Of a DNA stretch of 64,000 nt, positions 18,331-61,884 are shown in pieces (position 1 is the first letter of the stretch; every line of letters starts with the position of its first letter). The stretch is from the NCBI RefSeq assembly GCF_045037415.1, contig NZ_CP173439.1, one strand, 5' to 3'. Both the position numbers and the translations under genes were made by a program. The notes beneath the pieces are model-generated. The model ran no database searches. It worked only from the letters and a program-made list of their open reading frames with translations, and was not told the DNA's origin. Source of the stretch: Escherichia coli (GTDB lineage: Bacteria; Pseudomonadota; Gammaproteobacteria; Enterobacterales; Enterobacteriaceae).

Positions 18331-18361
18331 GCCAAGCTCTGCGGCGTGCAGACGCTGTACT

Positions 18362-20095: not shown

Positions 20096-20099
20096 ATAT

Positions 20100-20370
20100 A
20101 AACTGTAGTCAGTGAAGAGCGCTCCTTTACTGACTACAGCTTATATTAACTGGTGCAGTGAGTGGTCTGCTCACTGCAGTTTATATTCTGTTCCCTGCAG
20201 TGCTGTCTGTAGCTGAGCTGCCATCTGCCTGTCCCTTACGTAAGTGATCCCGTAACCTGATGCTGAGGCATTGCTCCCTTCATAAAACATGACTTACTCA
20301 CTACAGCTTATATACATGCTCCAGCTTATGTTATGTCTGTTCTGCTGACCACAGCTTATATAAGGAAGCG
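20100..20370. repeat. RepFIB iteron region (repeated ACTACAGCTTATAT-type motifs)
   Basis: At least four direct copies and one inverted copy of (c/t)actacagcttatat(a/t) within 270 bp downstream of repA. Confidence 0.6.
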
Positions 20371-20379
20371 CGTATGCCG

Positions 20380-21790: not shown

Positions 21791-22960
21791 ATGAATCAGA
21801 AGTGGAAGACGCTAATAGTTTCAGTATTAACACCATCAAGTATTATATCAGGGATTGCGTTGATAGTTCTCTGGGGATATTTCAGTCGTCTGGATCGACT
21901 TGATATTTTCTTTGATGTGATGAATATTAAAAGCATCTTGGTATTGGTTTGTTGTACAACTATTCTATCATTGATTATGATCATTTTTATTTTTTTTATA
22001 ACATCTTTTTTTATACCAATAGTTATTCCTTATGATATAAAAAATCTTCCTGCTTACAATAAGATTCAGGGTAATTTTTTATCTGTAATGATGTTATCTG
22101 GCCTCTTCCCCATGGCCTTTATATACGTGTTATACTGTGCATTTGATTTTGACCAGAGTGTTAAAGATAACTCTGGCTGGTTATCTATTTTAAGTATAGG
22201 AGTACTAATAGTTGTTATTTCAGCCATAATAAACACGAGGTATCTTGAATATGACTTATCGTTTAAAAATAATAGAATGAAACTGTTGAGACGTGTTCAG
22301 ATCTATCTTGTCATTCCGTTGTCTATTGCTTTACTGGTGCATCTTCAGGTAATTCCACTGGAGATGGTTTTTAGGAATATTGAAACTTCAGATAAGAGTA
22401 TTAATTTCAAAGTGATAGCTGAACTGGCTTTCATGTCATATTTTATTTTTATTCTGACAATACTTCCCGGCCTCATTTATCTAAAAATGAATCCACAGCA
22501 TAAACTTTCTAAAAGAATTAGTTCTGCATTTGTCGCATCCTTGATGATATTATTAGTTATATCGACTCAAATAACCGTATTACCAGTAATTTTTACCCAT
22601 TCAGTTATTAAGCTCTCAGGTATAAGTGACTTCAAAATACATAGCTACATTATTAAAACAAGTGAATATCCGGAGGAGTTTTTTTCCAATGCAGTATGGG
22701 GTAAAAAAAATATAAAACCGGGGGAATATTACTCTGTGCAGGCTGTTTCTATGTTTACGACAAACCAGTTTATTCTCCTTTGTCCCAAGGATATTATAAG
22801 GTTTTATCGGGAAAGCTGGAAGTTCGACCTGCTTAATGTAGACTTCGATACAAATACCAGGAAGAAACTCCAGGAAGAAGCAGCATATTGCGTACCAATT
22901 TCTGCAATATCTGTAAAACGATGGGATATGCCTCTTCAGGGCTCGAAACCCTCAAATTAG
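21791..22960 (+). CDS. hypothetical polytopic membrane protein (AT-rich orphan)
   Basis: 389 aa with about eight hydrophobic helices and a ~90-aa hydrophilic C-terminal domain; flanked by long AT-rich non-coding DNA. Confidence 0.5.
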   Translation: MNQKWKTLIVSVLTPSSIISGIALIVLWGYFSRLDRLDIFFDVMNIKSILVLVCCTTILSLIMIIFIFFITSFFIPIVIPYDIKNLPAYNKIQGNFLSVMMLSGLFPMAFIYVLYCAFDFDQSVKDNSGWLSILSIGVLIVVISAIINTRYLEYDLSFKNNRMKLLRRVQIYLVIPLSIALLVHLQVIPLEMVFRNIETSDKSINFKVIAELAFMSYFIFILTILPGLIYLKMNPQHKLSKRISSAFVASLMILLVISTQITVLPVIFTHSVIKLSGISDFKIHSYIIKTSEYPEEFFSNAVWGKKNIKPGEYYSVQAVSMFTTNQFILLCPKDIIRFYRESWKFDLLNVDFDTNTRKKLQEEAAYCVPISAISVKRWDMPLQGSKPSN

Positions 22961-43914: not shown

Positions 43915-44477
43915 CTTGGACTTAAATAGCTATAAACGTTTGTTGAATGGATGTATTTAGCGATAAAATCAGTATAAAAACCGTTATCAAAGAAGATGGA
44001 CGTATACCCACCCAGACCATAGCTTTTAGTATCGCCATAATAGCTGCCGCTCAGCTCTGCATTGGTACTTGTATGGGTAAATATTAAGCCAGTGTATAGC
44101 ATTGCTGATTCAATTCTTATGCCTTTGTCTGCACCGAGTTGCAGGTGGTTGTATGTATTCTGATAACCGTCAGTGCCACTCCCCTGACCGAGCATATAGC
44201 GTCCCCAGACCCCGGCTTCTCCACTGTCGCGAATGTCCCCCATACGTTTATTGAGGTTATTCATTTCTGTAGAGAAAAGGCGGTAGCTGCTATTAGCAAA
44301 ACTGGCCGCCGTACTGACTGCTTTTTTATCAGGCTCTGAGTTAAAGCCAATAATTGCCAGATTTGTACCGTTACCGTTATCACTAGTACCAAGTATCGGT
44401 GTTACGTTACTGAGCCCCGTTTTCTGGCTTATTGCCGAGAACATACTGAAATCGGTACCATCCGGTGCTTCAATTAG
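43915..44477 (-). pseudogene. autotransporter beta-domain, 5'-proximal fragment (continues the 14589..15191 fragment)
   Basis: Translation ...YGDTKSYGLGGYTSIFFDNGFYTDFIAKYIHSTNVYSYLSP then runs into the IS629 end; upstream part cut by IS5; first 125 bp identical to 15067..15191. Confidence 0.55.
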
Positions 44478-45671
<1,194 letters not shown>

Positions 45672-46306
45672 CTAAAGGCGTCTTTGGCTTCGGTCAGCGA
45701 ACACTGCTGTTTTTCTTTGCAGGACGGTGAATCTTTGTAGTCCGTCATCTGCGCCAGCAGCTGATAGCTGTTGTCAAGCTGCATCTGGCTGCGCTCTTTT
45801 TCCATCGCCTGCACCGCTTTCTGGCTAAACGCCGCAGAGTCATCGGTGATCACCGGATTAAACGTTGGGTCCATCGTGCCCATTTTTTCCTGATGATGTA
45901 CCGGAATGTCGCACCCAGGGAAAGCGCCGGTGATAAAGAATTGTGCCGTCGCAACGGTGCGTTGCAGACTGTTGGCATAGGTATATACCGTGTCCGGCGT
46001 CGGGCATTCGCCTGACGTGACCATCCCCAGCTCCGCCAGCCATTCTCGCATGTAGTGGCCCATATAAATTTCCAGCACACCGCCTTTCGTGGTGAGCTGC
46101 CCGCCGGGCACATCCCACTCCGGCCACTGATTCGGCGTGGACTGCTCCAGCACGCTGCCATTATTGGCCAACGGCGCGCGCAAGTTGTGTCGGCTCATCA
46201 TCAACACTTGTTGCAGTTGATAACCTTCCGGCGTTGTCTGCGCTTGCGCGGCGGACGACAATAAAACAGCCCCTGCCACAGCGGCGGCGAGTATCAATTT
46301 TTTCAT
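45672..46306 (-). pseudogene. agp: glucose-1-phosphatase/histidine acid phosphatase (Agp-like), 3'-truncated by IS5
   Basis: Signal peptide plus RHNLRAP (RHGxRxP) motif; close to E. coli Agp over ~210 aa, then enters IS5. Confidence 0.7.
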
Positions 46307-46427
46307 CCCTACAACCTCTTGTTGTTATCAATCCTCATAGAGTGTGACAGAAATATGACATTTTTCCGGGAACGGTTTCGCAAAACGGGAGATTCCAGAA
46401 GATAACCGGCAGGTCAGCGTGTTCCGG

Positions 46428-46913
46428 TTACTCCGAGATAAAAACCTCATACTTAATATTGCGGGCGCAATAAAAAGTGCCGTCCGTCAGATACAGTTCA
46501 CGAAATCGCGTGTTATCAGAGATGTTGTCCAGCAGGGAACGTTCCGTATCGACAAATTCTTTTTGCACGCGGTAATGAACGGCGTTCTCCGTTTCAAAAG
46601 AGACATATTCCGTGGTGGCGTAGGGCTTATTTTTTGATTTCACGTACACGATATATTGCACGGTACTGGCCGTCAGCCCCGTTTTCGCCGCGATCTCTTT
46701 GAGACTCAACGTCTCAGAGGCATAAAGCGCCTGAACCTGCGCTATGCGTCGGTGATTATACGCCGTCACCCGAAGGCTCAGTTTCAGCCGATAGGCCATA
46801 TTCCGCACGGCGGTAATATTAGTGTGAAGCAGTTGCGCTATCTGCTCTGTCGTGAGGATGCCCGCGTTTTCCCGCAGAATCGCAAGGCTTTCGTCGTTCC
46901 AGATAAATGCCAT
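46428..46913 (-). CDS. hypothetical protein (possible HTH-containing)
   Basis: 161-aa ORF immediately downstream of the thioredoxin-like gene; no recognisable motif. Confidence 0.4.
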   Translation of the reverse strand: MAFIWNDESLAILRENAGILTTEQIAQLLHTNITAVRNMAYRLKLSLRVTAYNHRRIAQVQALYASETLSLKEIAAKTGLTASTVQYIVYVKSKNKPYATTEYVSFETENAVHYRVQKEFVDTERSLLDNISDNTRFRELYLTDGTFYCARNIKYEVFISE

Positions 46914-46937
46914 TGGGTATCTCTCCGTACGCGTCGT

Positions 46938-47423
46938 TCATCGCGCCGCCAGGCGCGCAAACGTGGCCTCTAACTCAGGCGGCTTACGCATACCCTGGTG
47001 TAGCTCCAGAACGCGTCCTTCGGAGTCAATCAGTACGGAGGTCGGCGTGCCGATCACCTGATAACGTTCCTGGGTAATGTTGAGCTGATCGCGCACCACC
47101 GGATAGGTTATCTGATGTTTTGCCAGCAGATCGTTGATCCTGACCGTTTCAGGGTCGGTATTGACCGCCACAACCACCACTTTATCGCCCCATTTTTTGC
47201 TCAGCGCTTCCAGCGTGTCCATTTCCGCCAGGCACCCCCCGCATCCCGCAGACCAAAAATTCAGGTACACCGCCTTTCCTTGCCAGCGTTCAAGGCCTGA
47301 CTCCTGGCCTTGCAGATCAAACGCCGCCAGCGCCGGGGCCGGTGCCCCGACCGCCAGCTTTTCTTCTTTACACCCGCTTATCAGGATCGCCGCCGCGAGT
47401 AACAGCACATTATGCCAGCGCAT
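46938..47423 (-). CDS. thioredoxin-like thiol:disulfide oxidoreductase (TlpA/ResA-like)
   Basis: Signal/anchor then WSAGCGGC CxxC motif; last gene of the fetMP-associated ABC operon. Confidence 0.7.
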   Translation of the reverse strand: MRWHNVLLLAAAILISGCKEEKLAVGAPAPALAAFDLQGQESGLERWQGKAVYLNFWSAGCGGCLAEMDTLEALSKKWGDKVVVVAVNTDPETVRINDLLAKHQITYPVVRDQLNITQERYQVIGTPTSVLIDSEGRVLELHQGMRKPPELEATFARLAAR

Positions 47424-48105
47424 GTTGATTGGCCTCCTCACCCAGATATTTACCGTGTTGCAGCCGCAGAATACGGTCGGCAAACTGCCCAAGCGCAGGG
47501 TTGTGCGTCACCATCACAATCGTGCGCCCCTGACGATGCAGATCGGTGAGCAGATCCAGCACCCGCTGCTCATTCTCTTCATCCAGGTTGCCCGTCGGTT
47601 CATCCGCGAAAATAACCGGCGGTTCGTTGACCAGCGCCCGGGCGATACACACACGCTGCTGCTCACCACCGGAAAGCTGGCTCGGCAGGTGCGTCACACG
47701 ATGCCCAAGCCCTACCTGTTCCAGCACCTTCCTCGCCGCCGCTTCATCCACCACGCTGTGGTAATGCTGGGCGAGCATGATGTTTTCCAGCGCAGTTAAG
47801 AACGGGATCAAATGGAACTGCTGAAATACCAGGCCGATTTTCTCGGCGCGAAAGCGACGGCGCCCCTCTTCATCCAGCGCGGCGGCATCGGTGCCATCAA
47901 GAAACACCTGCCCTTCCGTCGCCGTATCAAGGCACGTCAGAATATTCATCAGCGTGGTTTTACCAGAACCAGAAGCGCCCATAATGGCGACAAATTCACC
48001 CTGCGCAATGCGCAGATTAATGTCATCCAGGGCGGTAACGTCACCGAACCGTTTGTATAAGTGGCGGGTTTCGATCGCCACCTGAGGGATATGCGTAACG
48101 GACAT
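47410..48105 (-). CDS. ABC transporter ATP-binding protein (LolD/MacB-type)
   Basis: Walker [10 protein letters not shown], signature LSGGEQQR, Walker [12 protein letters not shown]. Confidence 0.85.
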
Positions 48106-48109
48106 GGCG

Positions 48110-49240
48110 CTACTCTCCTTTCAGCACTTTAGCAGGCTCGACGCTTACCGCGCGTCGCACCGGAACAATCGCCGCCAGAATGGCGACCAGTAAAGACAAC
48201 ACCAGAGTAATGGGCAACACCGGCAGACGCAGTGAAATGGCGGCATTAAACACCGTTAATCCCAACAGTTGCGCCAGCAAATATCCCAGCACCCAGCCGC
48301 ACGCCACCGCCGCCAGCGCGATGATGCTGGTTTCCAGCAGAATTTGCCGCACGATATCGCCGTTGCTGGAACCAAGCGCTTTTTGCAGCGCAAACTCGTG
48401 CGCCCGCTCGCCGACAATCGCCATCAGCGTGGTATTCACGCACAGCGAAGAGAGCGCCAGAATCACGATCGAGACCAGTCCCATCAGACCTTTAATTTTA
48501 TCCAGCACCTGCCCTTCGGAAGCAGAGACCTTACGCACCGGACGAATCTCCTGGTCAGGATACTGCGCCTGCAACCGGCTGGCATAGTTCTCCACCTGGC
48601 CGACATCGTTACTGACGCTCAGCAAGCCGTGGCTGATTTTGCCCGGCTGATGCAGCCAGGCCTGCGCCACGTCGAGGCTGACGATCAGCATGTTGTCCGT
48701 CGCATCGCCAGACTCCACAATGCCTTTAATCTGCAAATTCTTACGCTGATTGTGATCCACCAGCGTGATGCTGTCGCCCGGCTGCACGTTGAGGCGTTCC
48801 GCCAGTTTGACGCCGATCATCGCATTACGGTCGTCAAAACTGACGCCAATCCAGCTACCGGTGACCTGCCAGTACGGCACCAGTTTTTGCAGCGACTCGA
48901 ACCACACGCCAACCATCACCACTTTTTCCAGCTCGGTACGCGCCATGCCGTACAACCACGGACTGGCGCCATGCACCAGCCCCTGCGGCGCCTGATCGAG
49001 AATGCTCTGCAACTCCTGCTGCGGCATACTGGAACCGTGCCCCGGCCCGATGTAAAAATTCGCGCCGAAGGTGCGCAGTTCTTCGCTCATTTTGGTGTTA
49101 ATGTCGAACCAGACGGCAGAAAGCGCCGTCACGATGGTCGCCCCCACCATCAGCGCGGCAAACACCACGCTGACCCGCTGAAAACGCAGACGCAGCGCCC
49201 GCCACACCAGCAGCCAGAGCATGGTACGTTTAGCGGCCAT
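48110..49240 (-). CDS. ABC transporter permease, FtsX-like
   Basis: N-terminal TM, large periplasmic domain, C-terminal multi-TM bundle; start estimated at an internal Met. Confidence 0.7.
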   Translation of the reverse strand: MAAKRTMLWLLVWRALRLRFQRVSVVFAALMVGATIVTALSAVWFDINTKMSEELRTFGANFYIGPGHGSSMPQQELQSILDQAPQGLVHGASPWLYGMARTELEKVVMVGVWFESLQKLVPYWQVTGSWIGVSFDDRNAMIGVKLAERLNVQPGDSITLVDHNQRKNLQIKGIVESGDATDNMLIVSLDVAQAWLHQPGKISHGLLSVSNDVGQVENYASRLQAQYPDQEIRPVRKVSASEGQVLDKIKGLMGLVSIVILALSSLCVNTTLMAIVGERAHEFALQKALGSSNGDIVRQILLETSIIALAAVACGWVLGYLLAQLLGLTVFNAAISLRLPVLPITLVLSLLVAILAAIVPVRRAVSVEPAKVLKGE

Positions 49241-50513
49241 ACAGCACCTCCACAGGATACAGCCGGGCAATCCGCCGGGCCGGGAACCAGGTGCCGATCA
49301 ACGCAATCAGTACCGCAATCACCAGTACGCACGGCACCACAATCCAGGCAAAATTAAGCGGCGCGTCGAAGAGCATGACGCCAATCGCTTTCGCCAGCCC
49401 CCACCCGGCAATACATCCCAGCGCACCGCCAGCCAGCCCGCTGGACGCCGCTTCCAGGTAGAACAGCAGCATAATTTGCCACTGTCGCGCACCCAGCGCT
49501 TTCATCAAACCGATCTCTTTGGCGCGTTCCATAATGGTGCTGGTCATCAGCGAGGCGATCCCCATTGCGGAAGCCACCAGCGCCGCGACGGTAACGACCG
49601 CCATCAGCAACTGAATTTTATCGATCACCACCCCTTCGGACGCCGCGACCTGCCATACCGGGCGCACTTCCGCACCGGAAATCGCCTCTTCCAGCTGATG
49701 CGCGATCGACGACACATAGGCCGTGCAATACCAGAGGTCGTACTCTTCGGCATTGAGCGCGTCCAGGTTTTCCCGCGCGCGGCGGGACAGTTCGTTTTCC
49801 GGCACCGTCAGCGCCGAGACGCGAATCGCCTGCACTTTTCCGGGGAGCCCCAGCAGGTGCTGTACCGTGCTTAGCGGCATCACCAGTTGGTTATCTTCAT
49901 CGCCGCCGCTGGAGAGGATACCGCTGACGGTGACCTGCACTGCTTCGCCTTCGGTACGTAATGTCAGCTTATCACCGGGTTTCCAGCCCATTTGCCGCGC
50001 CAGCGCGTGCCCGACTAAGGTCTGCGGCTCTGCGCCTGCGGGTTCCTGCGGCCAGTCGCCGGTCACCTGCCAGTATGGGCTGACCGTTTTCTGCCCCGTC
50101 TCATATCCCTCTTCATCAGGAATATCCACTGGCTGACTGAAGAAAGTGCCCAGAATCCGCACTGGTTCTCCCTCCACGCTGGCTTCGCCGCCGAGCATCG
50201 GCGCAAACCCGACAATGTTGTTTCGCCAGAAGATATCTTTGATGTTCGGCAGCTCGGCTTCATCAAGAAAATCCTGACCGGAAAGCGGATTACTGCTCTC
50301 ACTAAACAGCGCGGGCAGCGCAGCCTGTCCGGCGGGTTCAATCAAAATGTTCGCACCATAAGACTTCAGCTCTCTGGACATTTTGTCGCCGATATCAATG
50401 GACACCGCCAGCAGCGCCGAGATCAGGCTGGAGGCCAGAAAAACGGTGATTATCGCCAGCACTTTGCGGCGTAAATTGCGCCCCCAGGATTGTCGTAACA
50501 TCCGCCACAGCAT
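49230..50513 (-). CDS. ABC transporter permease, FtsX-like
   Basis: 427 aa, same architecture as its neighbour. Confidence 0.75.
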   Translation of the reverse strand: MLWRMLRQSWGRNLRRKVLAIITVFLASSLISALLAVSIDIGDKMSRELKSYGANILIEPAGQAALPALFSESSNPLSGQDFLDEAELPNIKDIFWRNNIVGFAPMLGGEASVEGEPVRILGTFFSQPVDIPDEEGYETGQKTVSPYWQVTGDWPQEPAGAEPQTLVGHALARQMGWKPGDKLTLRTEGEAVQVTVSGILSSGGDEDNQLVMPLSTVQHLLGLPGKVQAIRVSALTVPENELSRRARENLDALNAEEYDLWYCTAYVSSIAHQLEEAISGAEVRPVWQVAASEGVVIDKIQLLMAVVTVAALVASAMGIASLMTSTIMERAKEIGLMKALGARQWQIMLLFYLEAASSGLAGGALGCIAGWGLAKAIGVMLFDAPLNFAWIVVPCVLVIAVLIALIGTWFPARRIARLYPVEVLYGR

Positions 50514-50515
50514 GA

Positions 50516-51895
50516 TTATTCCTCCCTCATGTCGGCAGGAACAAACTGCTCCGGCGTTTCACGGAAGCGTTCATAGTTAGCCTCTGACGAGAAGAACCAG
50601 GTCTTGCCGCCATAGCTGTATTTGTAATCGGCTGAGGTATTGGTCAACGTTGAACCATCGACCGGATCGGTCACTTTAATAGTCATGACCGTCGAGAAGT
50701 AGTTCACCCCTGTCGCCAGTTCTTTACCGGGGATCACCAGCTCTTTTTCATCATTGTGCCAGTTTTCAATCGGCACCGGGTTACAGCCACCGGCCTTGCC
50801 GATAGACGGAATAAAAATATGCACTCCGCAGGCGACGCAGATAACCTGATTGCCCTCCATGACATAACCCTGATCGCCGCACAGCAGGCAGGCGTCGAAC
50901 ACCACGCCAAAACGCAGCTTGTCGGGATAGCGGTTAATCACGAAGAAGCGCACCGCTTTGCCATCGTCCGCCACCCAGACGAAACGATGCAGTTTACCGT
51001 CACGAAGCTGTTCAACCGGCAGGCGCACCATGCCATCGCTCCCCAGCGTTACGGGCACGGCTTCAGAGAGTTGCGGCGGCTGCGAGGCCACTTTATCCCA
51101 CCACAGTTGGCCTGCGATAACGACCACCGCGCAGCCGATTGTGACCAACCACAGCCGCAAAGCGTTGCGACGCTGCGCCAGCGCCAGACGGTGAGCAATC
51201 GGTTCTTCGGTTTCCCGCGTCTGTCGAAAAGCCCGCAACAGCGCCGGAAGCCAGCACAGCGCCAGGGCCAGCAGCAGCGCGGCTCCCGTCCAGTTATACA
51301 GCGCCGTGTTATTTGTGACTTTCGCCACGAAGCTCAGCAGTGATTTTCCCAGCGGAACAACCTGTAATTTCATCAGCAACAACAGCAGGTTGCCGCTCAG
51401 CGGCAGCCAGATCATCACCAGCAGAATCAGCGTTAACGGCCAGTACAGGCCGCGAATACGCCGCAGCAGCATCGCGCAGAGTACGCCCGCCAGACAGAGG
51501 ATCGCAAAAGCGAGAACGACGGCCGTCAGGTTTAACAGCAGGTCAGTATTCAGCACATGCGTACTGGTCAGCCCGCCCAGATTAGGGTCCAGCGCCCAAT
51601 GGCGGGCAGCGCCGAAAATCAGAATCCCCTGCCACAGATAGCGGATACGCGTTGAAGCCCACCAGAAACTGAGGACAAACAGCAGCGATACCATGACCTC
51701 CGCCCCAACCAGCAGCAGTTGTACCGGTTGGCTGCCGTGAATAAACAGTCCCGCCAGCACGCCGGCAATCAGCCCGGTCAGCAGCGTCCAGGTCAGCGGA
51801 CGTAAAGAGGGAGGATCGTTTCGACTCCAGAGAACACCGGAAAGAAGCGCAATGCAGAAAAAGACCTGTAGCGTCGTGACGAAAAAGTAACTCAT
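50516..51895 (-). CDS. integral membrane protein with C-terminal Cys-rich/YHS-like domain (Cj1660-like)
   Basis: 459 aa; multiple TM helices; C-terminal CLLCGD...CVACG and KYSYGGKTWFFSSEANYERF. Confidence 0.55.
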   Translation of the reverse strand: MSYFFVTTLQVFFCIALLSGVLWSRNDPPSLRPLTWTLLTGLIAGVLAGLFIHGSQPVQLLLVGAEVMVSLLFVLSFWWASTRIRYLWQGILIFGAARHWALDPNLGGLTSTHVLNTDLLLNLTAVVLAFAILCLAGVLCAMLLRRIRGLYWPLTLILLVMIWLPLSGNLLLLLMKLQVVPLGKSLLSFVAKVTNNTALYNWTGAALLLALALCWLPALLRAFRQTRETEEPIAHRLALAQRRNALRLWLVTIGCAVVVIAGQLWWDKVASQPPQLSEAVPVTLGSDGMVRLPVEQLRDGKLHRFVWVADDGKAVRFFVINRYPDKLRFGVVFDACLLCGDQGYVMEGNQVICVACGVHIFIPSIGKAGGCNPVPIENWHNDEKELVIPGKELATGVNYFSTVMTIKVTDPVDGSTLTNTSADYKYSYGGKTWFFSSEANYERFRETPEQFVPADMREE

Positions 51896-51998
51896 AACTT
51901 CGACTCTGTACGGCGGGTTGAATTAAGCGACGGGCATATGATCGGTCTGACCAACGCGCCAGAAGGGGGAATCCTCCTGGCGCGTTGGTTAGTCGGTT

Positions 51999-52529
51999 TT
52001 AGTTCAGACCGACATATTTAAACTCGTAGCTCACATCAAACGGTTTCCACCAGCGGCCTACGCCTGTTTCGCTGTCAGTATGGCGATGCATCCCGGCTTT
52101 TGACGGCGGTTCAATGTGGTAGGTCACTTTATAGTTGCCCACGCCCATCATTTTGATGTTCGCGCCATAGTGCGGGCCATCGCTGGCAACCATCGGCATG
52201 AAGGTGCCTTCCTGTTTTTCGCCCGTGTCGTTGTTGACCAGGGTGTAGCTGATGGTCAGGTACGGGATCCATTCCCCTGCGCCAAAGCCGTTTTTATTGC
52301 CTTCTACAGCGTGGATATCCGCTTCAAGGTGAACATCGGCTTTTGCTGCCGGTAAGCCCATGCCGCGCGGTTCCATATCAATCGGTTGCAGGTAAACGGC
52401 CGCCAGCTCCATTTCATTCATGGTGACAGGCTCGCCTGCCGGGTACTCTTTAAAAGCAAACGCGGCTGGCGCAATGAAAATGCTGGCCATCACTGCGCTG
52501 GCAATCAGGGTTTTCTTCATGGTCATCAA
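51999..52529 (-). CDS. fetP: periplasmic iron transport protein FetP/P19 family
   Basis: 176 aa with signal peptide; size and position immediately after the FTR1-type permease match FetP/P19. Confidence 0.7.
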   Translation of the reverse strand: MMTMKKTLIASAVMASIFIAPAAFAFKEYPAGEPVTMNEMELAAVYLQPIDMEPRGMGLPAAKADVHLEADIHAVEGNKNGFGAGEWIPYLTISYTLVNNDTGEKQEGTFMPMVASDGPHYGANIKMMGVGNYKVTYHIEPPSKAGMHRHTDSETGVGRWWKPFDVSYEFKYVGLN

Positions 52530-52566
52530 ACGTATCCTCTCGTCTAAAACAACGGCTATACAACGA

Positions 52567-54513
52567 TTATGGGTTATTTTTTATCGTCTCCCCGGGAACC
52601 GCGCTTTTGCGCCGCATCACCCACAGCGCCACCAGCGCCGCGAGCAGCAATACGACCTGCGGTAACAACGTTTCCACGTAGGGATAAATCCCCAGCCAGC
52701 TGATTTCAGGGAAGCCGTTAATCAACGTAGGCTGGAACAGTTTGCCTTCCACCAGTTCCAGAACGCCTTTGCCCGCAAAGACGAAGGCCATCAGATACAT
52801 GAAACTGCCGGTAAACATAAAGAAGGGTTTCAGCGGCAGGCGCACTACTGAGTAACGCATCACCAGCCAGGCGAGCAGCAGCACCACGCAGCCAATCACA
52901 AAACCGGCGCCAATCGCCATATGGCCGGATACCGTGTTTGCATCGCCAATCAGAGCGTAATAGAACAGCACCGTTTCCGCCCCTTCGCGGTACACCGCCA
53001 GGAAGCTGGTCAGCCATAGTCCGACCAGGGAGCCTCGCGACAGGGAATGAGACAGTTTGCCTTCCAGCCAGGCTTTCCAGTGGCGCGCTTCCACTTTGGA
53101 CAGCAGCCAGTAACTCATAAAGAACAGCATCACGACGGCAATCAGCATCGTTATGCCTTCCAGCAGTTCACGGCTGGCGCCGGAGTTAGTAAACAGCATC
53201 TGGAAGATAGCGGCGGTGATGACGCTGGCGATCAGCGCCACAATTACCGACTGACGAATAAGCGGCAGCTTATCCTGATGGTTGTTTTTCACCATGTAGG
53301 CCACGATTGCCGCAACAATCAGCAGCGCTTCCAGCCCCTCGCGCACGATGATCATCAGACTATAGAGCAGCAGACTCCACTGGGTTTCTTCGCCTTCGCC
53401 CAGCATCGTCACGGCTTTTTGCAGATCCTGCGCCAGCGCGCTGGCCTCTGCATTCAGGCGCTCAACCGGCTGACCGGCCTTCATCAGACTGACCAAGCGG
53501 GTAAAATACGCCTCCAGCGTGGTTTTAAATGCCGAATCGCGAGAGCCGATTTTGTTTTCCATGCCGCTGGCTTCGAAGCGGTCGAAGTAGGTATCCTGGA
53601 TATCCAGAATCGCATTCTTCGCATCGCCGCCCTGATAGCGCGCTATCGCGTCCTGAATGCTCTGGTTAATTCCCGTCGTCACCTCAGCCCAGTCGGTGCG
53701 GTTATTTCCCTCGTCCGCCGCCGGAATGTTGTCTGCGCTTTGCGCTGCGGCAACCTGCTGATCGTCACGGGTGGTTGGCAAGCCGGGTAAGATATCCTCG
53801 ATATCCTGTAGCAGCGTAGTGACCTGATAGGAGACATCGTTGAGATGGTCAGGTTGCGCGGTCAGCGCAATCAGGGATGAGAATTGTTGGTTAATGGAGG
53901 CGGCATCTTTTGCAGAACGGTTTTGTCTGAGGGACATCTCCATCTCAGAGTTTTTAAAGCCCTGATAGTGCGCCTGTTGAACGTGCTGACTGGCAACGCT
54001 GTAATTCCCGGCCTGATATTCAGTGACCGCCTGCGCCAGCAGATCGTCGATCGTCCTGAAACTCTCCTGCCAGTGAACGGCAATGTCGTCCCTGGACAGC
54101 GCGTTGTGCTGCTCTTCGGCCACCAGACGATGTCCGCCATCCAGCACCGGTTCCACTTCGCGCAGTGCGGCTTTCAGCCAGTCAATGCGCGCCTGGACGT
54201 CAGCGAGCGGTTTTTTCTCGCCAATCATTCGACGGATCTCGCCGAATGCGCTCTCCATCTCGTAACTTTTGCGCGCGGAAATGTTGATGCGGATCGGCCC
54301 TTCCAGGTTCTCGAACACCTCAAAATAGGCCATTTGTACCGTGCGGCGCGCCTCGTCGGCATGCTGTTGCTGATAAAGTTCCGCTGTTTTATCAAGACGT
54401 TGCTCGATATCTTCAATCAAAGGCGCATAATTCGTCGACGCCCAGACACTCATGCTTATAAACAAGCCAAAGAGAGTAACCAACAAAGAGTTACGAAAGT
54501 TACGCACGTGCAC
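52567..54513 (-). CDS. fetM: FTR1-family iron permease with large N-terminal periplasmic domain (FetM-like)
   Basis: 648 aa; REGLEALLIVAAI (RExxE motif) in the C-terminal membrane domain; Fur box immediately upstream. Confidence 0.8.
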   Translation of the reverse strand: MHVRNFRNSLLVTLFGLFISMSVWASTNYAPLIEDIEQRLDKTAELYQQQHADEARRTVQMAYFEVFENLEGPIRINISARKSYEMESAFGEIRRMIGEKKPLADVQARIDWLKAALREVEPVLDGGHRLVAEEQHNALSRDDIAVHWQESFRTIDDLLAQAVTEYQAGNYSVASQHVQQAHYQGFKNSEMEMSLRQNRSAKDAASINQQFSSLIALTAQPDHLNDVSYQVTTLLQDIEDILPGLPTTRDDQQVAAAQSADNIPAADEGNNRTDWAEVTTGINQSIQDAIARYQGGDAKNAILDIQDTYFDRFEASGMENKIGSRDSAFKTTLEAYFTRLVSLMKAGQPVERLNAEASALAQDLQKAVTMLGEGEETQWSLLLYSLMIIVREGLEALLIVAAIVAYMVKNNHQDKLPLIRQSVIVALIASVITAAIFQMLFTNSGASRELLEGITMLIAVVMLFFMSYWLLSKVEARHWKAWLEGKLSHSLSRGSLVGLWLTSFLAVYREGAETVLFYYALIGDANTVSGHMAIGAGFVIGCVVLLLAWLVMRYSVVRLPLKPFFMFTGSFMYLMAFVFAGKGVLELVEGKLFQPTLINGFPEISWLGIYPYVETLLPQVVLLLAALVALWVMRRKSAVPGETIKNNP

Positions 54514-54528
54514 ACCGCCAAAGAATAC

Positions 54529-54547
54529 AAATGATAATTATTATCAT
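54529..54547 (-). promoter_or_regulatory. Fur box upstream of fetM
   Basis: AATGATAATTATTATCAT, one mismatch from the Fur core; lies 15-35 bp upstream of the annotated GTG start, so the true start or promoter geometry needs checking. Confidence 0.5.
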
Positions 54548-54799
54548 ATCTTTTTGTCGCGTTGTACATGACCTGGATCATAAAAATGTCAGCAGACGAC
54601 AAGTTATGTAAACTTATTTCATCAAATCGTGATGAACACACACATTATGCGTTGATAAAAGGGACGTTATCTCCCTGTTTTTCTCATGGAATTAACGGCA
54701 AGGCAGGCGCGGTAACAGAGGAATAAATCCCCCTGCCGACAGTGATATTATTCATTATCGGCAGGCAGAAATAAAACGCGTTATTGCGTACAGCAATAT

Positions 54800-55561
54800 T
54801 CAAAGATTAAGGTTATTTCGATCGCTGGCAAGACGCTGTAAGAATTGACCATATCCCTGCGGCCCCATCCAGTAGTTAATACTTTTCTCAACGCCGGTTG
54901 ATGTCAACGTCGCACCGGAAATACCGTCAACGGTATATTCATCGGCATGTTCAGGTTTATCCTGTACTATTTTCAATGCAGGATGTCCGCTGTTATCTAA
55001 TAATCGTTTCCCTGGCCACTGTTTGCGCCAGTTGGCGTCTTCCACCCTAGCCCCCAGAAACGGCGTTTCCCGTTGCTGATAATAATACAGATTTCTCACC
55101 GTACGACCGTCCAGCCCCAGAGCAAGAAACGCATGCATCATGGATTTCGCGCCCTTACCGGTAACTGGAATGATAACCTGCTGAATTTCATTATTTTTAT
55201 CTTTCACAAAGAACACATCCGCCACCGTACAGCGCTGACGAACCTGCGCTGGGTCGCGTTCAGGGGCAAGTTTTTCACACTTCTGCCGCGCGGTGTCCGC
55301 GCTGCTGCCAGCCACCAGTTCGCCGGAATCTAAATTAACATGGCGTTGAATAATATAACGATGATAGAGCGTTTCGACTGATTTTTTATCCTGGGTCTCT
55401 GATTTCATCAGGCCCGCAGCGTGTAAAATTGCCGCCTGTTTTTCCTCCTCTGTCGGCTCCGTCATTTCTCCCTGGAACAGCATAAACCATGCCGCCGCCG
55501 CAACAAAAATAAGGACACAAAGCACCATCATTGATGCAACAATAATTTTACCCTTGCGCAT
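54800..55561 (-). CDS. FMN-binding domain membrane protein (NqrC/RnfG-like)
   Basis: Membrane anchor then a domain with the conserved GISGATLTS motif; start estimated at an internal Met. Confidence 0.55.
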   Translation of the reverse strand: MRKGKIIVASMMVLCVLIFVAAAAWFMLFQGEMTEPTEEEKQAAILHAAGLMKSETQDKKSVETLYHRYIIQRHVNLDSGELVAGSSADTARQKCEKLAPERDPAQVRQRCTVADVFFVKDKNNEIQQVIIPVTGKGAKSMMHAFLALGLDGRTVRNLYYYQQRETPFLGARVEDANWRKQWPGKRLLDNSGHPALKIVQDKPEHADEYTVDGISGATLTSTGVEKSINYWMGPQGYGQFLQRLASDRNNLNL

Positions 55562-55797
55562 TGAATTGTTATCCCTGTCAAAATGGAAATCGAAAAAATC
55601 GCCTGAACGTATCACAGACTTTCATTCAATTAAAACAGATATGCCATTATCAATTCAGGTTTGCAACGTCAGGCAGCGGTAAAAAATAATAACTGGCGTC
55701 GGTAAAAAAGCAGCAAAAATAACAGAAAACACGCTCTCCGCTCGTTTTACACATCCTTACAATGGGTTAAAAAATGCCGGGTTTCCCCGGCACGCTA

Positions 55798-56304
55798 TCA
55801 AAACATGGCTGCCCGCCACAGACGTAACTTCATGCCCCAGTAGCTGGTCCAGCCGCTGGTCGTAGTTACCACCTGCCCCTTCGACACCACCACCAGCGTT
55901 GGCGTGACGCTGATTTCCCAGTTTCGTGATATCTCACCGCCGCTATCATTCACGACGGGGAACGTCACCCTTTTACGCGATAACCAGCGGGAAACCTCCC
56001 CGTCATTACCGGAACGCAGCGCGATGGTCATGACGCTCTCCCCTTCCGACTGCAAACGGGCGACATCCGGCGTGGTGAAACGGCAGATACCGCACCAGCT
56101 CGCCCAGAAGTAGAGCAGCACCGGGCGTTCTTCACTGATCGACGCCAGCGTTACGGTTTCCCCGTCCAGCGTATGCAGCGGCGTGCTGTCAAACATGGCC
56201 GGCATCTGCGGAGAACGCCAGACATCCAGCAGGATTATCACGCCAGCCAGCAGAACCAGTAAGATCGCGCCTTCACGCAGCCAGCGGCGCAGTTTACTGA
56301 GCAT
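55798..56304 (-). CDS. scsD: thiol:disulfide interchange protein ScsD-like (TlpA family)
   Basis: 168 aa; membrane anchor and WASWCGICR CxxC motif; sits directly after an ScsC-like fragment. Confidence 0.65.
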   Translation of the reverse strand: MLSKLRRWLREGAILLVLLAGVIILLDVWRSPQMPAMFDSTPLHTLDGETVTLASISEERPVLLYFWASWCGICRFTTPDVARLQSEGESVMTIALRSGNDGEVSRWLSRKRVTFPVVNDSGGEISRNWEISVTPTLVVVSKGQVVTTTSGWTSYWGMKLRLWRAAMF

Positions 56305-56464
56305 GGGCCACCGCCAGTTTTTCTTTCACCACCGCCTCAAGGGTCTCCCACGATACCGCGCCGGGGATCATCTCGTCGCCAATGATGGTTGCCGGCGTCC
56401 CCTGAACGCCAACCAGCCGGGCGAGTTGCAGATTGGTGCTCAACGTCTCCATGCTTTTCTCATC
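56294..56464 (-). pseudogene. scsC: DsbA-like ScsC, C-terminal fragment only
   Basis: ...GVQGTPATIIGDEMIPGAVSWETLEAVVKEKL is a DsbA-family C-terminus; the 5' part is replaced at the 38-bp repeat at 56465. Confidence 0.5.
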
Positions 56465-56503
56465 GGGGTCAGTTTGGATATAGAGAATTATTGTACTATA
56501 AGG
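56465..56503. repeat. 38-bp Tn3-family-like terminal repeat copy (GGGGTCAGTTTGGATATAGAGAATTATTGTACTATAAG)
   Basis: 38 bp from GGGG to TAAG; forms the junction that truncates scsC. Confidence 0.5.
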
Positions 56504-56757
56504 GCTTCCCCGGCATGTCAACGCCGGTGTTTACGGTTTCTGTCTGCACTATAGTAAAAAAATAAAGGGGAGAGACTGCGGTACTATAAACGGTCATGAT
56601 GAATCGTCATCGATTCGGACCCTGATGAAAGACGCTCGTGAGGCTCTAGTTCGTTAGTCGGGTACACTTGCCCTGTACAATAAGCAGATATACCTCACGG
56701 GGTCTAACCCTTTATCATCAACGAGTTGCAGATCAGATGGTCATACAGCTTTGTACT

Positions 56758-57071
56758 TTAGCTGGCTGAGTACAACCTGAAATCATCACCGTAATGCAAT
56801 GATGCCCAGCACAGTCTTGCATTTTTGGCAGCGATGGCAACAACAGCGCGCCAGTATCCTCTGCGTTCGACCAGTGAGCAGACCCAACGACTGAATAAAT
56901 CAGTCCTTTTCTCCGCCCCGATCAGTACCGAGCGGGCACCCTGAACCAGAAGTGTTCTCAGATACGAATCGCCAGCTTTCGTTATCCTGCCAAGCTTCGA
57001 CTTTCCGCCGCTGCTGTACTGCGATGGTGTCAGTCCCAGCCAGGCTGCCAGCTGGCGCCCATTCTTAAAAT
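56758..57071 (-). pseudogene. IS110/IS1111-family transposase (IS4321/IS5075-like), C-terminal fragment cut by IS26
   Basis: ...NGRQLAAWLGLTPSQYSSGGKSKLGRITKAGDSYLRTLLVQGARSVL is the conserved IS110-family C-terminus; reading frame enters the IS26 IR. Confidence 0.6.
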
Positions 57072-57891
57072 GGCACTGTTGCAAAGTTAGCGATGAGGCA
57101 GCCTTTTGTCTTATTCAAAGGCCTTACATTTCAAAAACTCTGCTTACCAGGCGCATTTCGCCCAGGGGATCACCATAATAAAATGCTGAGGCCTGGCCTT
57201 TGCGTAGTGCACGCATCACCTCAATACCTTTGATGGTGGCGTAAGCCGTCTTCATGGATTTAAATCCCAGCGTGGCGCCGATTATCCGTTTCAGTTTGCC
57301 ATGATCGCATTCAATCACGTTGTTCCGGTACTTAATCTGTCGGTGTTCAACGTCAGACGGGCACCGGCCTTCGCGTTTGAGCAGAGCAAGCGCGCGACCA
57401 TAGGCGGGCGCTTTATCCGTGTTGATGAATCGCGGGATCTGCCACTTCTTCACGTTGTTGAGGATTTTACCCAGAAACCGGTATGCAGCTTTGCTGTTAC
57501 GACGGGAGGAGAGATAAAAATCGACAGTGCGGCCCCGGCTGTCGACGGCCCGGTACAGATACGCCCAGCGACCATTGACCTTCACGTAGGTTTCATCCAT
57601 GTGCCACGGGCAAAGATCGGAAGGGTTACGCCAGTACCAGCGCAGCCGTTTTTCCATTTCAGGCGCATAACGCTGAACCCAGCGGTAAATCGTGGAGTGA
57701 TCGACATTCACTCCGCGTTCAGCCAGCATCTCCTGCAGCTCACGGTAACTGATGCCGTATTTGCAGTACCAGCGTACGGCCCACAGAATGATGTCACGCT
57801 GAAAATGCCGGCCTTTGAATGGGTTCATGTGCAGCTCCATCAGCAAAAAGGGATGATAAGTTTATCACCACCGACTATTTGCAACAGTGCC
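57072..57891 (-). mobile_element. IS26, complete, 820 bp
   Basis: GGCACTGTTGCAAA terminal repeats at both ends; intact tnp26. Confidence 0.95.
57124..57828 (-). CDS. tnpA: IS26 transposase Tnp26
   Basis: MNPFKGRHFQRDIILWAVRWYCKYGISYRELQEMLAERGVNVDHSTIYRWVQRYAPEMEKRLRWYWRNPSDL... (234 aa from the internal Met). Confidence 0.95.
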   Translation of the reverse strand: MNPFKGRHFQRDIILWAVRWYCKYGISYRELQEMLAERGVNVDHSTIYRWVQRYAPEMEKRLRWYWRNPSDLCPWHMDETYVKVNGRWAYLYRAVDSRGRTVDFYLSSRRNSKAAYRFLGKILNNVKKWQIPRFINTDKAPAYGRALALLKREGRCPSDVEHRQIKYRNNVIECDHGKLKRIIGATLGFKSMKTAYATIKGIEVMRALRKGQASAFYYGDPLGEMRLVSRVFEM

Positions 57892-59064
57892 ATTCTGAGC
57901 ACTGTCGCGCTCGACGCTGTCGGCATCGGCCTGATTATGCCGGTGCTGCCGGGCCTCCTGCGCGATCTGGTTCACTCGAACGACGTCACCGCCCACTATG
58001 GCATTCTGCTGGCGCTGTATGCGTTGATGCAATTTGCCTGCGCACCTGTGCTGGGCGCGCTGTCGGATCGTTTCGGGCGGCGGCCGGTCTTGCTCGTCTC
58101 GCTGGCCGGCGCTGCTGTCGACTACGCCATCATGGCGACGGCGCCTTTCCTTTGGGTTCTCTATATCGGGCGGATCGTGGCCGGCATCACCGGGGCGACT
58201 GGGGCGGTAGCCGGCGCTTATATTGCCGATATCACTGATGGCGATGAGCGCGCGCGGCACTTCGGCTTCATGAGCGCCTGTTTCGGGTTCGGGATGGTCG
58301 CGGGACCTGTGCTCGGTGGGCTGATGGGCGGTTTCTCCCCCCACGCTCCGTTCTTCGCCGCGGCAGCCTTGAACGGCCTCAATTTCCTGACGGGCTGTTT
58401 CCTTTTGCCGGAGTCGCACAAAGGCGAACGCCGGCCGTTACGCCGGGAGGCTCTCAACCCGCTCGCTTCGTTCCGGTGGGCCCGGGGCATGACCGTCGTC
58501 GCCGCCCTGATGGCGGTCTTCTTCATCATGCAACTTGTCGGACAGGTGCCGGCCGCGCTTTGGGTCATTTTCGGCGAGGATCGCTTTCACTGGGACGCGA
58601 CCACGATCGGCATTTCGCTTGCCGCATTTGGCATTCTGCATTCACTCGCCCAGGCAATGATCACCGGCCCTGTAGCCGCCCGGCTCGGCGAAAGGCGGGC
58701 ACTCATGCTCGGAATGATTGCCGACGGCACAGGCTACATCCTGCTTGCCTTCGCGACACGGGGATGGATGGCGTTCCCGATCATGGTCCTGCTTGCTTCG
58801 GGTGGCATCGGAATGCCGGCGCTGCAAGCAATGTTGTCCAGGCAGGTGGATGAGGAACGTCAGGGGCAGCTGCAAGGCTCACTGGCGGCGCTCACCAGCC
58901 TGACCTCGATCGTCGGACCCCTCCTCTTCACGGCGATCTATGCGGCTTCTATAACAACGTGGAACGGGTGGGCATGGATTGCAGGCGCTGCCCTCTACTT
59001 GCTCTGCCTGCCGGCGCTGCGTCGCGGGCTTTGGAGCGGCGCAGGGCAACGAGCCGATCGCTGA
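57892..59064 (+). pseudogene. tetA: tet(A) class A tetracycline efflux gene, 5'-truncated by IS26
   Basis: From the IS26 junction the frame reads ILSTVALDAVGIGLIMPVLPGLLRDLVHSNDVTAHYGILLALYALMQFACAPVLGALSDRFGRRP...; about 10 N-terminal codons, the start codon and tetR are absent. Confidence 0.85.
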
Positions 59065-59095
59065 TCGTGGAAACGATAGGCCTATGCCATGCGGG

Positions 59096-59856
59096 TCAAG
59101 GCGACTTCCGGCAAGCTATACGCGCCCTAGGAGTGCGGTTGGAACGTTGGCCCAGCCAGATACTCCCGATCACGAGCAGGACGCCGATGATTTGAAGCGC
59201 ACTCAGCGTCTGATCCAAGAACAACCATCCTAGCAACACGGCGGTCCCCGGGCTGAGAAAGCCCAGTAAGGAAACAACTGTAGGTTCGAGTCGCGAGATC
59301 CCCCGGAACCAAAGGAAGTAGGTTAAACCCGCTCCGATCAGGCCGAGCCACGCCAGGCCGAGAACATTGGTTCCTGTAGGCATCGGGATTGGCGGATCAA
59401 ACACTAAAGCTACTGGAACGAGCAGAAGTCCTCCGGCCGCCAGTTGCCAGGCGGTAAAGGTGAGCAGAGGCACGGGAGGTTGCCACTTGCGGGTCAGCAC
59501 GGTTCCGAACGCCATGGAAACCGCCCCCGCCAAGCCCGCTGCGACGCCGACAGGATCTAGCGCTGCGTTTGGTGTCAACACCAACAGCGCCACGCCCGCA
59601 GTTCCGCAAATAGCCCCCAGGACCGCCATCAATCGTATCGGGCTACCTAGCAGAGCGGCAGAGATGAACACGACCATCAGCGGCTGCACAGCGCCTACCG
59701 TCGCCGCGACCCCGCCCGGCAGGCGGTAGACCGAAATAAACAACAAGCTCCAGAATAGCGAAATATTAAGTGCGCCGAGGATGAAGATGCGCATCCACCA
59801 GATTCCCGTTGGAATCTGTCGGACGATCATCACGAGCAATAAACCCGCCGGCAACG
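59096..59856 (-). pseudogene. EamA/DMT transporter (PecM-like, Tn1721-associated), 5'-truncated by IS1
   Basis: 252-aa hydrophobic ORF downstream of and convergent with tet(A), as in Tn1721; N-terminal part replaced by the IS1 end. Confidence 0.6.
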
Positions 59857-59871
59857 GGTAATGACTCCAAC

Positions 59872-60375
59872 TTATTGATAGTGTTTTATGTTCAGATAAT
59901 GCCCGATGACTTTGTCATGCAGCTCCACCGATTTTGAGAACGACAGCGACTTCCGTCCCAGCCGTGCCAGGTGCTGCCTCAGATTCAGGTTATGCCGCTC
60001 AATTCGCTGCGTATATCGCTTGCTGATTACGTGCAGCTTTCCCTTCAGGCGGGATTCATACAGCGGCCAGCCATCCGTCATCCATATCACCACGTCAAAG
60101 GGTGACAGCAGGCTCATAAGACGCCCCAGCGTCGCCATAGTGCGTTCACCGAATACGTGCGCAACAACCGTCTTCCGGAGCCTGTCATACGCGTAAAACA
60201 GCCAGCGCTGGCGCGATTTAGCCCCGACGTATCCCCACTGTTCGTCCATTTCCGCGCAGACGATGACGTCACTGCCCGGCTGTATGCGCGAGGTTACCGA
60301 CTGCGGCCTGAGTTTTTTAAATGGCGGAAAATCGTGTTGAGGCCAACGCCCATAATGCGGGCGGTTGCCCGGCAT
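59872..60375 (-). CDS. insB: IS1 InsB
   Basis: 167-aa ORF matching IS1 InsB. Confidence 0.9.
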
Positions 60376-60569
60376 CCAACGCCATTCATGGCCATATCAA
60401 TGATTTTCTGGTGCGTACCGGGTTGAGAAGCGGTGTAAGTGAACTGCAGTTGCCATGTTTTACGGCAGTGAGAGCAGAGATAGCGCTGATGTCCGGCGGT
60501 GCTTTTGCCGTTACGCACCACCCCGTCAGTAGCTGAACAGGAGGGACAGCTGATAGAAACAGAAGCCAC
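60294..60569 (-). CDS. insA: IS1 InsA
   Basis: 91 aa, [43 protein letters not shown]... Confidence 0.9.
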
Positions 60570-60624
60570 TGGAGCACCTCAAAAACACCATCATACACTA
60601 AATCAGTAAGTTGGCAGCATCACC

Positions 60625-61059
60625 CACTTTCTCCTGCCAGAGACGCCGGATATCCTTTTCATCCCGACCAGTCAGTTTTTTACCGGACAGCAGACGGTTA
60701 AGCAGTTCCTGTCTCGCATCCGGTACGTCTTCAGTCAGACGCATAAGCCGGAGTAATTCCTGACGACTGAGTACCATGCGTGATTCCTCCGGTACGCTGT
60801 AATAATTAAAAATACGACTGAATACCCCACAACAGCAGGCAACGGACAGGCACAGGGATTTCAGATACAGGCCAGAAACACAGAATGTGGCAACACCACA
60901 AAGAATAGCTATAACTAAAAATCCCTTACCCAGTGCCATACACAAAGAACCCTGTTTTCTGGATATCCGCTCATGCTCATCCAGAATAAAATCTATTTTT
61001 TCATTTTCTGATTTATGCATAGTGTTTCCTCTGCCTTTCCTGATACGCCTGACATTCAA
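60625..61059 (-). pseudogene. hypothetical tra-region protein, 3' end replaced by IS1
   Basis: ORF 60598..61059; its last 8 codons (GDAANLLI*) are encoded by the IS1 terminal repeat. Confidence 0.4.
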
Positions 61060-61234
61060 CGCACAACGTCACACCGGGAAATATTTTCCGCCGGGCTTCC
61101 GGAATAGGATTTCCGCATGCTTCACAGAGATAAACAGGAATACCATGAGCATTTATTTTCTGGCGTATCCGGTTTATTCCTGTCATGGTCAGTTGTTCTG
61201 TTACTGAATATGCTTCATCGGCTTCATCACTCAC
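61013..61234 (-). CDS. traR: TraR (DksA-like zinc-finger protein)
   Basis: 73 aa with CxxC...CxxC zinc finger; matches F TraR as recalled. Confidence 0.85.
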   Translation of the reverse strand: MSDEADEAYSVTEQLTMTGINRIRQKINAHGIPVYLCEACGNPIPEARRKIFPGVTLCVECQAYQERQRKHYA

Positions 61235-61368
61235 GGAATATTCCTCCCGACATGTTCTGACACGCTACCGCCCATCCCTTTTCACGCACAGGGCACTCGT
61301 TTTACAGGCAGATTTTGAATACAGAAAGCCCGCCGGCATTGCCGGCTGATATACAACTTCAGGGCCAG

Positions 61369-61884
61369 TTAATTAATACGTGGTTTTCCCCACGCAGACG
61401 GTTTAATAACAAAAAACACACTGGATGGTTGATGATAAACATCCTGATTATCAATATAAGGCGCTATCCATAATGCTGCCGTCTGCTCACCCGTTCTTAG
61501 CGGGCGGGGAGGTGTTACCGACGCAACTGAACTGACCGGAATAATCGTTTTCACTTCCCGGGCAGCCGTAAACAACGGACGTGGTGCCAGCAGTTTCTGC
61601 TCCGGAAGTGCAGTCACAGCAGGCCTGCTGCGGGACGGCGTTGTCGCCGCAACGGCCTGCACCGACGTGGTCCGGAAGTTCCCGTCAGCCAGGCGCGGCA
61701 GTGATGCCGCAGCCGGCTTTGCTTCTGAGGACTGCTCCAGTTTTTTGGCCTTCTCATTGGCCTGCTCCATAGTCATACAGGTATCGGATGTGGTGGCATC
61801 ACACTCAAAATCGGAGTTCGTTCCGGCACAGCCGGAAAGTAATAACGTCCCCAGCAGCGGAATAAATAAAGAAATCTGTTTCAT
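61369..61884 (-). CDS. traV: TraV lipoprotein (type IV secretion outer-membrane component)
   Basis: 171 aa; lipoprotein signal LLLSGCAG; F-operon position between trbG and traR. Confidence 0.85.
   Translation of the reverse strand: MKQISLFIPLLGTLLLSGCAGTNSDFECDATTSDTCMTMEQANEKAKKLEQSSEAKPAAASLPRLADGNFRTTSVQAVAATTPSRSRPAVTALPEQKLLAPRPLFTAAREVKTIIPVSSVASVTPPRPLRTGEQTAALWIAPYIDNQDVYHQPSSVFFVIKPSAWGKPRIN

Follow-up and report, generated by a model that had tools for sequence, protein, structure and literature searches.

Tetracycline resistance modules derived from Tn1721, in which tetR, tetA(A) and a convergent pecM gene follow in this order, have been described as delta-Tn1721 (PMC3817090), and such modules are found on IncF plasmids like pRHBSTW-00176_4 (CP056803), AR437 unnamed2 (NZ_CP029104) and pDLI.6n (NZ_CP103975). 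For the insertion sequence (IS) IS26, two activities have been documented that matter here: adjacent deletion, which is intramolecular replicative transposition in cis (reviewed in PMC7986276 and PMC9330008), and the formation of hybrid promoters as a route for activating neighbouring genes (PMC6807381; PMC7986276). In this study, we analyzed a 64-kb stretch of Escherichia coli DNA from NZ_CP173439.1 (hereafter the window; all coordinates are positions within it). At positions 57072-60624 it carries four abutting pieces that can be seen from the sequence and its list of open reading frames (ORFs), namely IS26, tet(A), a pecM-like gene and IS1. The explanation that we favour, and regard as rather likely, is a recent adjacent deletion made in place by IS26, which would have left tet(A) silent or too weakly expressed. 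The elements (IS26, IS1 and a Tn1721-type tetA-pecM fragment) and the process (an IS26 deletion) are all textbook cases, and this is ordinary biology. The features of the region and its flanks are the following:

56758..57071, minus strand: 3' remnant of an IS110-family transposase gene, cut by IS26 (NCBIfam transpos_IS110, profile positions 247-341 of 343 only)
57072..57891, minus strand: complete IS26, 820 bp (14-bp terminal repeats, IS6-family model)
57124..57828, minus strand: tnp26, 234 aa, divergent from tet(A) (IS6-family model, 275.6 bits vs a cutoff of 125)
57853..59064, plus strand: in-frame IS26::tet(A) fusion ORF, 403 aa (ORF list, NCBIfam tet_MFS_A)
57892..59064, plus strand: tet(A) codons 10-399 and stop codon (tblastn, pairwise BLAST)
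59096..59856, minus strand: pecM/EamA-family gene without its first 41 codons, convergent with tet(A) (profile and BLAST comparison)
59857..60624, minus strand: complete IS1, 768 bp, with insA at 60294-60569 and insB' at 59872-60375 (profile and identity to the IS1 of pRHBSTW-00176_4 and pDLI.6n)
60625..61884, minus strand: right-hand backbone with traV (61369-61884), traR (61013-61234) and a 153-aa ORF (ORF list, family profiles)

An earlier note on this DNA had described a Tn1721-type tetA-pecM fragment between IS26 and IS1, and all of these elements were recovered where it had placed them. Compared with the three IncF modules named above, tet(A) codons 10-399, the spacer and pecM are 99.9-100% identical, and the pecM-IS1 junction of the window is identical to that of CP056803 and NZ_CP029104. 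Linkage and spacing of tetA and pecM are likewise identical to the Tn1721-type modules in the loci compared as L001, L005 (pRHBSTW-00176_4) and L006 (pDLI.6n). The window differs from these modules by the loss of tetR, the divergent tetO promoters, the ribosome-binding site, the GTG start and nine codons; the Tn21 mer module that lies between IS26 and tetR in CP056803 is gone too. The pecM gene is truncated. Between the two IS, 1,965 bp of the module (57892-59856) are left; the ORF list contains no Tn3-family transposase gene in this interval, in which the 38-bp terminal repeats were not searched for. With 1,965 bp left and tetR absent, the region is not a functional Tn1721.

The first base of tet(A), 57892, directly abuts the final base of IS26, so that the gene begins exactly at the IS26 inverted repeat, as the earlier note had stated. 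The alignment to reference tet(A) that it had proposed as a check was made by tblastn with intact Tet(A): residues 10-399 match at 100% identity over 57892-59061, and there is no other match in the window. The loss of N-terminal codons is thus real, but their number is nine (27 nt; residues MKPNRPLIV) and not the “about 10” given earlier. With them went the native GTG start and the GGAGG ribosome-binding site. No TetR match was obtained anywhere in the 64-kb window, in line with the claim that start codon, promoter and tetR are missing, and a divergent tetR with a TetR-controlled promoter is therefore absent as well. Based on its sequence, the tet(A) remnant scores as a member of the Tet(A) family (NF012193, with residues 10-399 fully identical to the reference allele) and at the same time lacks the completeness and regulation of the family, since IS26 sequence stands in place of the native start and N-terminus. 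At the other end, the convergent pecM-like gene retains 761 of 885 nt and is cut at its 5' end by IS1, again as previously reported.

The IS26 copy is complete (820 bp, a single 234-aa DDE transposase). Its perfect 14-bp terminal repeats, at 57072-57085 and 57878-57891, are the only ones in the window, which consequently holds one IS26 only. Its right inverted repeat (IRR) starts at 57072 and its left inverted repeat (IRL) ends at 57891, adjoining tet(A). Comparison of the flanks revealed target duplications at neither IS: IS26 (CTTAAAAT and ATTCTGAG) has no 8-bp duplication and is hence no simple insertion, and IS1 (CCGGCAACG and CACTTTCTC) has no 9-bp duplication. Unduplicated IS26 flanks are expected after deletion or recombination. 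The IS1 carries its terminal repeats together with insA and insB' and matches the copies in L005 and L006 with 100% identity. With a single IS26 and IS1 as the other boundary, the region is no IS26 pseudo-compound transposon or translocatable unit. Tnp26 is identical to the canonical protein, and the element shows two silent DNA variants relative to canonical IS26. One is a C-to-T change at IS26 position 43 (57849) in the tnp26 leader, a rare base that also occurs in the backbone IS26 of L005 and L006 and in the metagenome scaffold L012; the other is a C-to-T change at position 321 (57571), and T321 was seen only in the window.

The origin of the junction was addressed by pairwise BLAST against pRHBSTW-00176_4. 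To the right of the shared IS26, this plasmid carries about 1.4 kb of DNA and an EAL-domain gene, followed by merEDACPTR, a Tn1721 fragment, the tetR-tet(A) pair, a truncated pecM and finally IS1. Window positions 55000-57891 align to L005 11502-14377, and positions 57892-60624 align to L005 22430-25162 with 100% identity and no mismatch in 2,733 bp, the tetR-tet(A) pair of L005 being intact. The window therefore equals the L005 structure minus 14378-22429, i.e. 8,052 bp comprising the Tn21 mer module, tetR and the 5' end of tet(A), and the missing segment starts exactly at the IRL end of IS26. The word “decayed” in the earlier note is not borne out, because apart from the two truncations nothing is decayed in these 2,733 bp. 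Two lineage markers flank the junction. Base 59533 in pecM is A, which among the loci compared is found only in L005, whereas nine of the ten other public loci with the identical IS26|tet(A) junction have C at IS26 position 43 and G at 59533; the remaining one, L012, has T43 but G at 59533. The pecM-IS1 junction is common to many plasmids that still have an intact tet(A).

A loss of 8,052 bp at an IS26 end without any flanking duplication is characteristic of intramolecular replicative transposition of IS26 in cis. Since both lineage markers match L005, the junction was most probably made in place on the IncF plasmid by an IS26 adjacent deletion and not imported. The event looks recent, with no difference from the progenitor-like sequence. 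According to this model, the resident IS26, already located beside the IS110 remnant, would have attacked a site in tet(A) codon 10, and the deletion would have removed everything between the IRL end and this codon. About 8 kb would have been lost in this way: the Tn21 mer operon, tetR and the tetO-controlled promoters, as well as the ribosome-binding site and first nine codons of tet(A). IS1 would have trimmed the opposite side of the module earlier, giving the pecM-IS1 junction. What remained would be a tet(A) body of full identity, promoterless and repressorless, with an ATG in the IS26 end that happens to be in frame, owing to which gene callers and resistance-gene software still report Tet(A) as intact. 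Loss of tetA-tetR was perhaps favoured by its fitness cost: about 1% has been measured on an IncF plasmid (PMC8764527), which offers a reason for the survival of such deletions.

Published adjacent-deletion derivatives likewise show a single IS26, a deletion starting exactly from one IS end, no 8-bp duplication and an unchanged other flank (PMC7986276, PMC9330008). The window does not differ from them in kind; its end-point merely happens to place an IS26 ATG in frame. Two other routes were rejected. A simple IS26 insertion should have a reciprocal junction (tet(A) 5' end|IS26), and none is present in PLSDB; an inversion product was dismissed as neither the remaining tet(A)/tetR nor the deleted segment or a second tet gene was found anywhere in the window. 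As a further rearrangement of this resistance region, L005 and L006 have the same backbone IS26, with the tetR-tetA-pecM and EAL-mer blocks swapped between IS26 and IS1.

The sequence upstream of tet(A) offers few expression signals. A sigma-70 promoter scan gave none on either strand within 57000-59200, and the nearest upstream plus-strand matches lie near 55.7 kb, about 2 kb away, at chance level. When the plus strand across IS26 was scanned with a position weight matrix, the top site reached 6.8 bits. This corresponds to the 99.85th percentile among the positions of the window and is no more than chance gives across a 600-bp region. Read-through from upstream plus-strand genes was rejected because the genes upstream of tet(A) are all on the minus strand, the promoter matches are at chance level and a terminator-like hairpin is located at 56889-56905. 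As in the IS26 hybrid-promoter cases of aphA7, blaSHV-2a and blaKPC (PMC6807381, PMC7986276), the terminal repeat carries an outward -35 box, TTGCAA (57879-57884), 7 nt from the DNA of the resistance gene. In contrast to these cases, however, none of the hexamers 16-18 nt past it (ACTGTC, CTGTCG, TGTCGC) is a -10, and a transcript would begin after ATG57853, the only full-length start codon, which lies upstream of the -35. A hybrid promoter was rejected on these grounds.

For translation, the only purine-rich tract before ATG57853, AAAGGG, abuts the start codon and is thus a badly spaced ribosome-binding site. According to a crude thermodynamic model, initiation at ATG57853 is about 4% of that at the native site, which can serve as a rough indication only, as this simplified ribosome-binding-site model is dominated by its mRNA-folding term. 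With no promoter and no well-spaced ribosome-binding site for ATG57853, tet(A) is most likely silent or too weak for clinical resistance. Judged from these signals, we consider it probable that the gene is transcriptionally orphaned and would confer no or only marginal resistance. In the literature, we found no reported phenotype for an IS26-truncated tet(A) and no minimum inhibitory concentration either way. We also considered T43 (57849) as an adaptive change that raises expression; this was rejected since it alters no top promoter candidate, slightly worsens Shine-Dalgarno pairing and is also present in backbone IS26 copies not adjoining tet(A).

The tet(A)-strand ORF 57301-59064 (587 aa) is open and in frame with tet(A), so the reading through from IS26 that had been noted before was confirmed. 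The more relevant start, however, is the in-frame ATG at 57853; it lies 39 nt inside IS26, and tnp26 is encoded on the opposite strand. From this codon, a fusion of 403 aa is encoded, composed of 13 IS26-encoded residues (MISLSPPTICNSA) and Tet(A) residues 10-399; its N-terminal stretch is MISLSPPTICNSAILSTV. The previous view of the locus as a footprint rather than an active determinant accordingly stands as the likelier reading, given that no promoter was found, but it is less than certain, as this intact fusion scores above the Tet(A) cutoff.

The foremost alternative is that the IS26::Tet(A) fusion works and confers resistance independently of TetR, being transcribed constitutively at a low level from a weak promoter in or upstream of IS26. 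It would start at ATG57853 or at GTG57829, with 13-21 IS26-encoded residues substituting the first nine residues of Tet(A). Several observations weigh against a silent gene and for this alternative. The fusion ORF is intact with zero inactivating changes and reaches 875 bits vs a cutoff of 840 with NCBIfam tet_MFS_A (NF012193; profile positions 7-394 of 394). The first transmembrane segment (TM1) keeps a 19-residue hydrophobic window, ILSTVALDAVGIGLIMPVL, with a mean of 2.07 vs 2.39 in the wild type (Kyte-Doolittle scan), and its conserved segment ILSTVALD is retained. The ATG has an A-rich tract upstream, and the in-frame GTG at 57829 scores about equal to the native start in the crude thermodynamic model. 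Weak or non-canonical promoters escape consensus scans, and a small amount of TetA may be enough to confer resistance. The persistence of the exact window protein on 35 public contigs, with at least nine different left flanks of IS26 and several right-hand contexts, could reflect selection. A second allele occurs on seven contigs, and in the fusion-forming orientation the junction has at least two independent origins.

Against a working fusion stand the lack of a promoter above chance, the impossibility of a hybrid promoter and the Shine-Dalgarno-like GGG that abuts the ATG. In addition, the basic N-terminal residues K2 and R5 are lost. NorA, the closest solved relative, aligns from Tet(A) residue 4, and the deletion thus appears to take the first turn or two of TM1. 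If made, the fusion protein may still plausibly insert and work. The junction is also very rare, as detailed below, and IS26 occurs in reversed orientation at the same nucleotide without providing a start codon, so that recurrence needs no selection for function. Overall, we regard a working fusion as possible and yet unlikely, and a tet(A) that is silent or too weakly expressed as the better account.

The second allele is found in E. coli Z22-2, where the equivalent ORF on plasmid NZ_CP159754 (L003, 6022-7233) is annotated as tet(A) by RefSeq and its Prokaryotic Genome Annotation Pipeline (PGAP) with the same start (WP_224728653.1). It shares with the window the IS26 orientation, the junction nucleotide and the 13-residue IS26-encoded N-terminus. 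It differs by a canonical IS26 with C43, a T-to-A substitution and another neighbourhood (mph(A), floR), and it has another C-terminus from about residue 397 on, at the border to an IS91-family fragment. This allele (P0002) is hence trimmed at both ends and still annotated as Tet(A).

In PLSDB, 4,162 plasmids match the 5' region of tet(A), and 4,121 of these cover at least 80% of a 532-nt query spanning the region; none of the 4,162 has the window-type junction. Among 5,426 complete E. coli genomes, it was found in a single one (Z22-2). The ten contexts retrieved share the junction and the IS26 orientation, with at least nine left flanks. Their right-hand neighbours vary between full-length pecM with a Tn3-family transposase gene fragment, pecM with an isochorismatase gene, and further truncations. 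Six PLSDB plasmids, including pSBF22a, carry IS26 in reverse at the same nucleotide, with an in-frame TAA before the junction and no start codon. Compared by sequence, the junction loci (including L002, L003 and L007-L016) suggest that IS26 has hit one phosphodiester bond in at least three apparently independent events: the window lineage with T43 and A59533, the common lineage with C43 and G59533, and the reversed IS26. This hints at an IS26 target hot spot at the tet(A) codon 10 junction. An IS26-repeat-like motif, GAGCACTGTCGC (57897-57908), was considered as the cause of this recurrence, and it has only 9 of 14 matches; as sites with at least 10 of 14 matches to the IS26 repeat occur about once per kb in the window, the motif is not above chance and can serve as a lead only. 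On the metagenome scaffold L012 (ETEC16-1, ENA; about 2178-2197), the fusion IS26 is flanked at its IRR side by bases 18-37 of the left end of another IS26, so that here one IS26 has inserted in, or recombined beside, a second IS26 fragment.

It can be asked whether codon 10 is a recurrent IS26 target that repeatedly yields a self-sufficient, TetR-free Tet(A), with the start and 13 residues supplied by the antisense left end of IS26. We consider this distinctly unlikely. Since the reversed, non-coding orientation also occurs, target preference explains the recurrence better than selection for the fusion. A self-sufficient Tet(A) of this kind would, if real, mean low-level constitutive resistance without the cost of tetR, and IS26 would donate translation starts and not only -35 boxes.

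An import of the ready-made junction, either by an IS26 translocatable unit or by homologous recombination with a plasmid that already carried IS26|tet(A) codon 10, appears improbable, and we give it little weight. Such an import would be consistent with the circulation of the identical junction in many contexts, with the combination of a T43 IS26, the junction and a full-length pecM in L012, and with the readiness of IS26 to exchange flanks (PMC7986276). However, for both private markers to be retained, recombination would have to cross over in the 42 bp that separate IS26 position 43 from the end of the element and again ahead of 59533, whereas a single 8,052-bp deletion explains everything and only one IS26 is present in the window. 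That the junctions are assembly artefacts from collapsed repeats is barely credible: repeats present in many copies, such as IS26 and IS1, are a frequent cause of mis-joined contigs, but the same IS26|tet(A) junction is found in independent NCBI, ENA and Logan assemblies, the pecM-IS1 junction recurs in many complete plasmids, and the break-points are base-precise at the IS termini.

The main value of a tet(A) remnant shaped by a probable in-place deletion lies in a caution for genotype-based resistance calls, besides the hint of a recurrent IS26 target nucleotide. The truncated gene passes the Tet(A) model and is named Tet(A) in RefSeq, so that a prediction from the genome alone would call the plasmid tetracycline-resistant; in the PLSDB annotation, the equivalent truncated gene of pSBF22a is reported as tet(A) with 100% identity. 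If silent, the fusion would be a source of discordance between genotype and phenotype; if active, it would be a regulator-free allele that current schemes do not distinguish. Furthermore, the window provides a clean and dated case of mercury and tetracycline determinants lost together, probably through a single IS26 deletion step.

Regarding the surroundings, the window belongs to the type of E. coli IncF plasmids that carry senB and an FTR1 iron-uptake module. A conserved iron-uptake cluster extends over 44000-56550, entirely on the minus strand, with genes for the FTR1 permease, a DUF2318/Fe-S protein, an ABC transporter, TlpA-like and DsbA-like oxidoreductases and an NqrC-like FMN-binding protein, as is typical of IncF plasmids from extraintestinal pathogenic E. 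coli (ExPEC). The ORF of the IS110 remnant (about 95 residues, C-terminal) continues for 13 nt within IS26 and ends at 57084. Many IncF plasmids, among them pVR50 and pCE10, have the same junction between this remnant and IS26, which is thus an old backbone scar. On the right, the F-type transfer operon is interrupted by IS1 shortly after traR (60598-61884, continuing to 64000). Unless traC and later genes, which do not adjoin this point, lie outside the window, the plasmid may be non-conjugative. The 153-aa ORF next to IS1 has no family match, and its last codons and stop codon are supplied by IS1.

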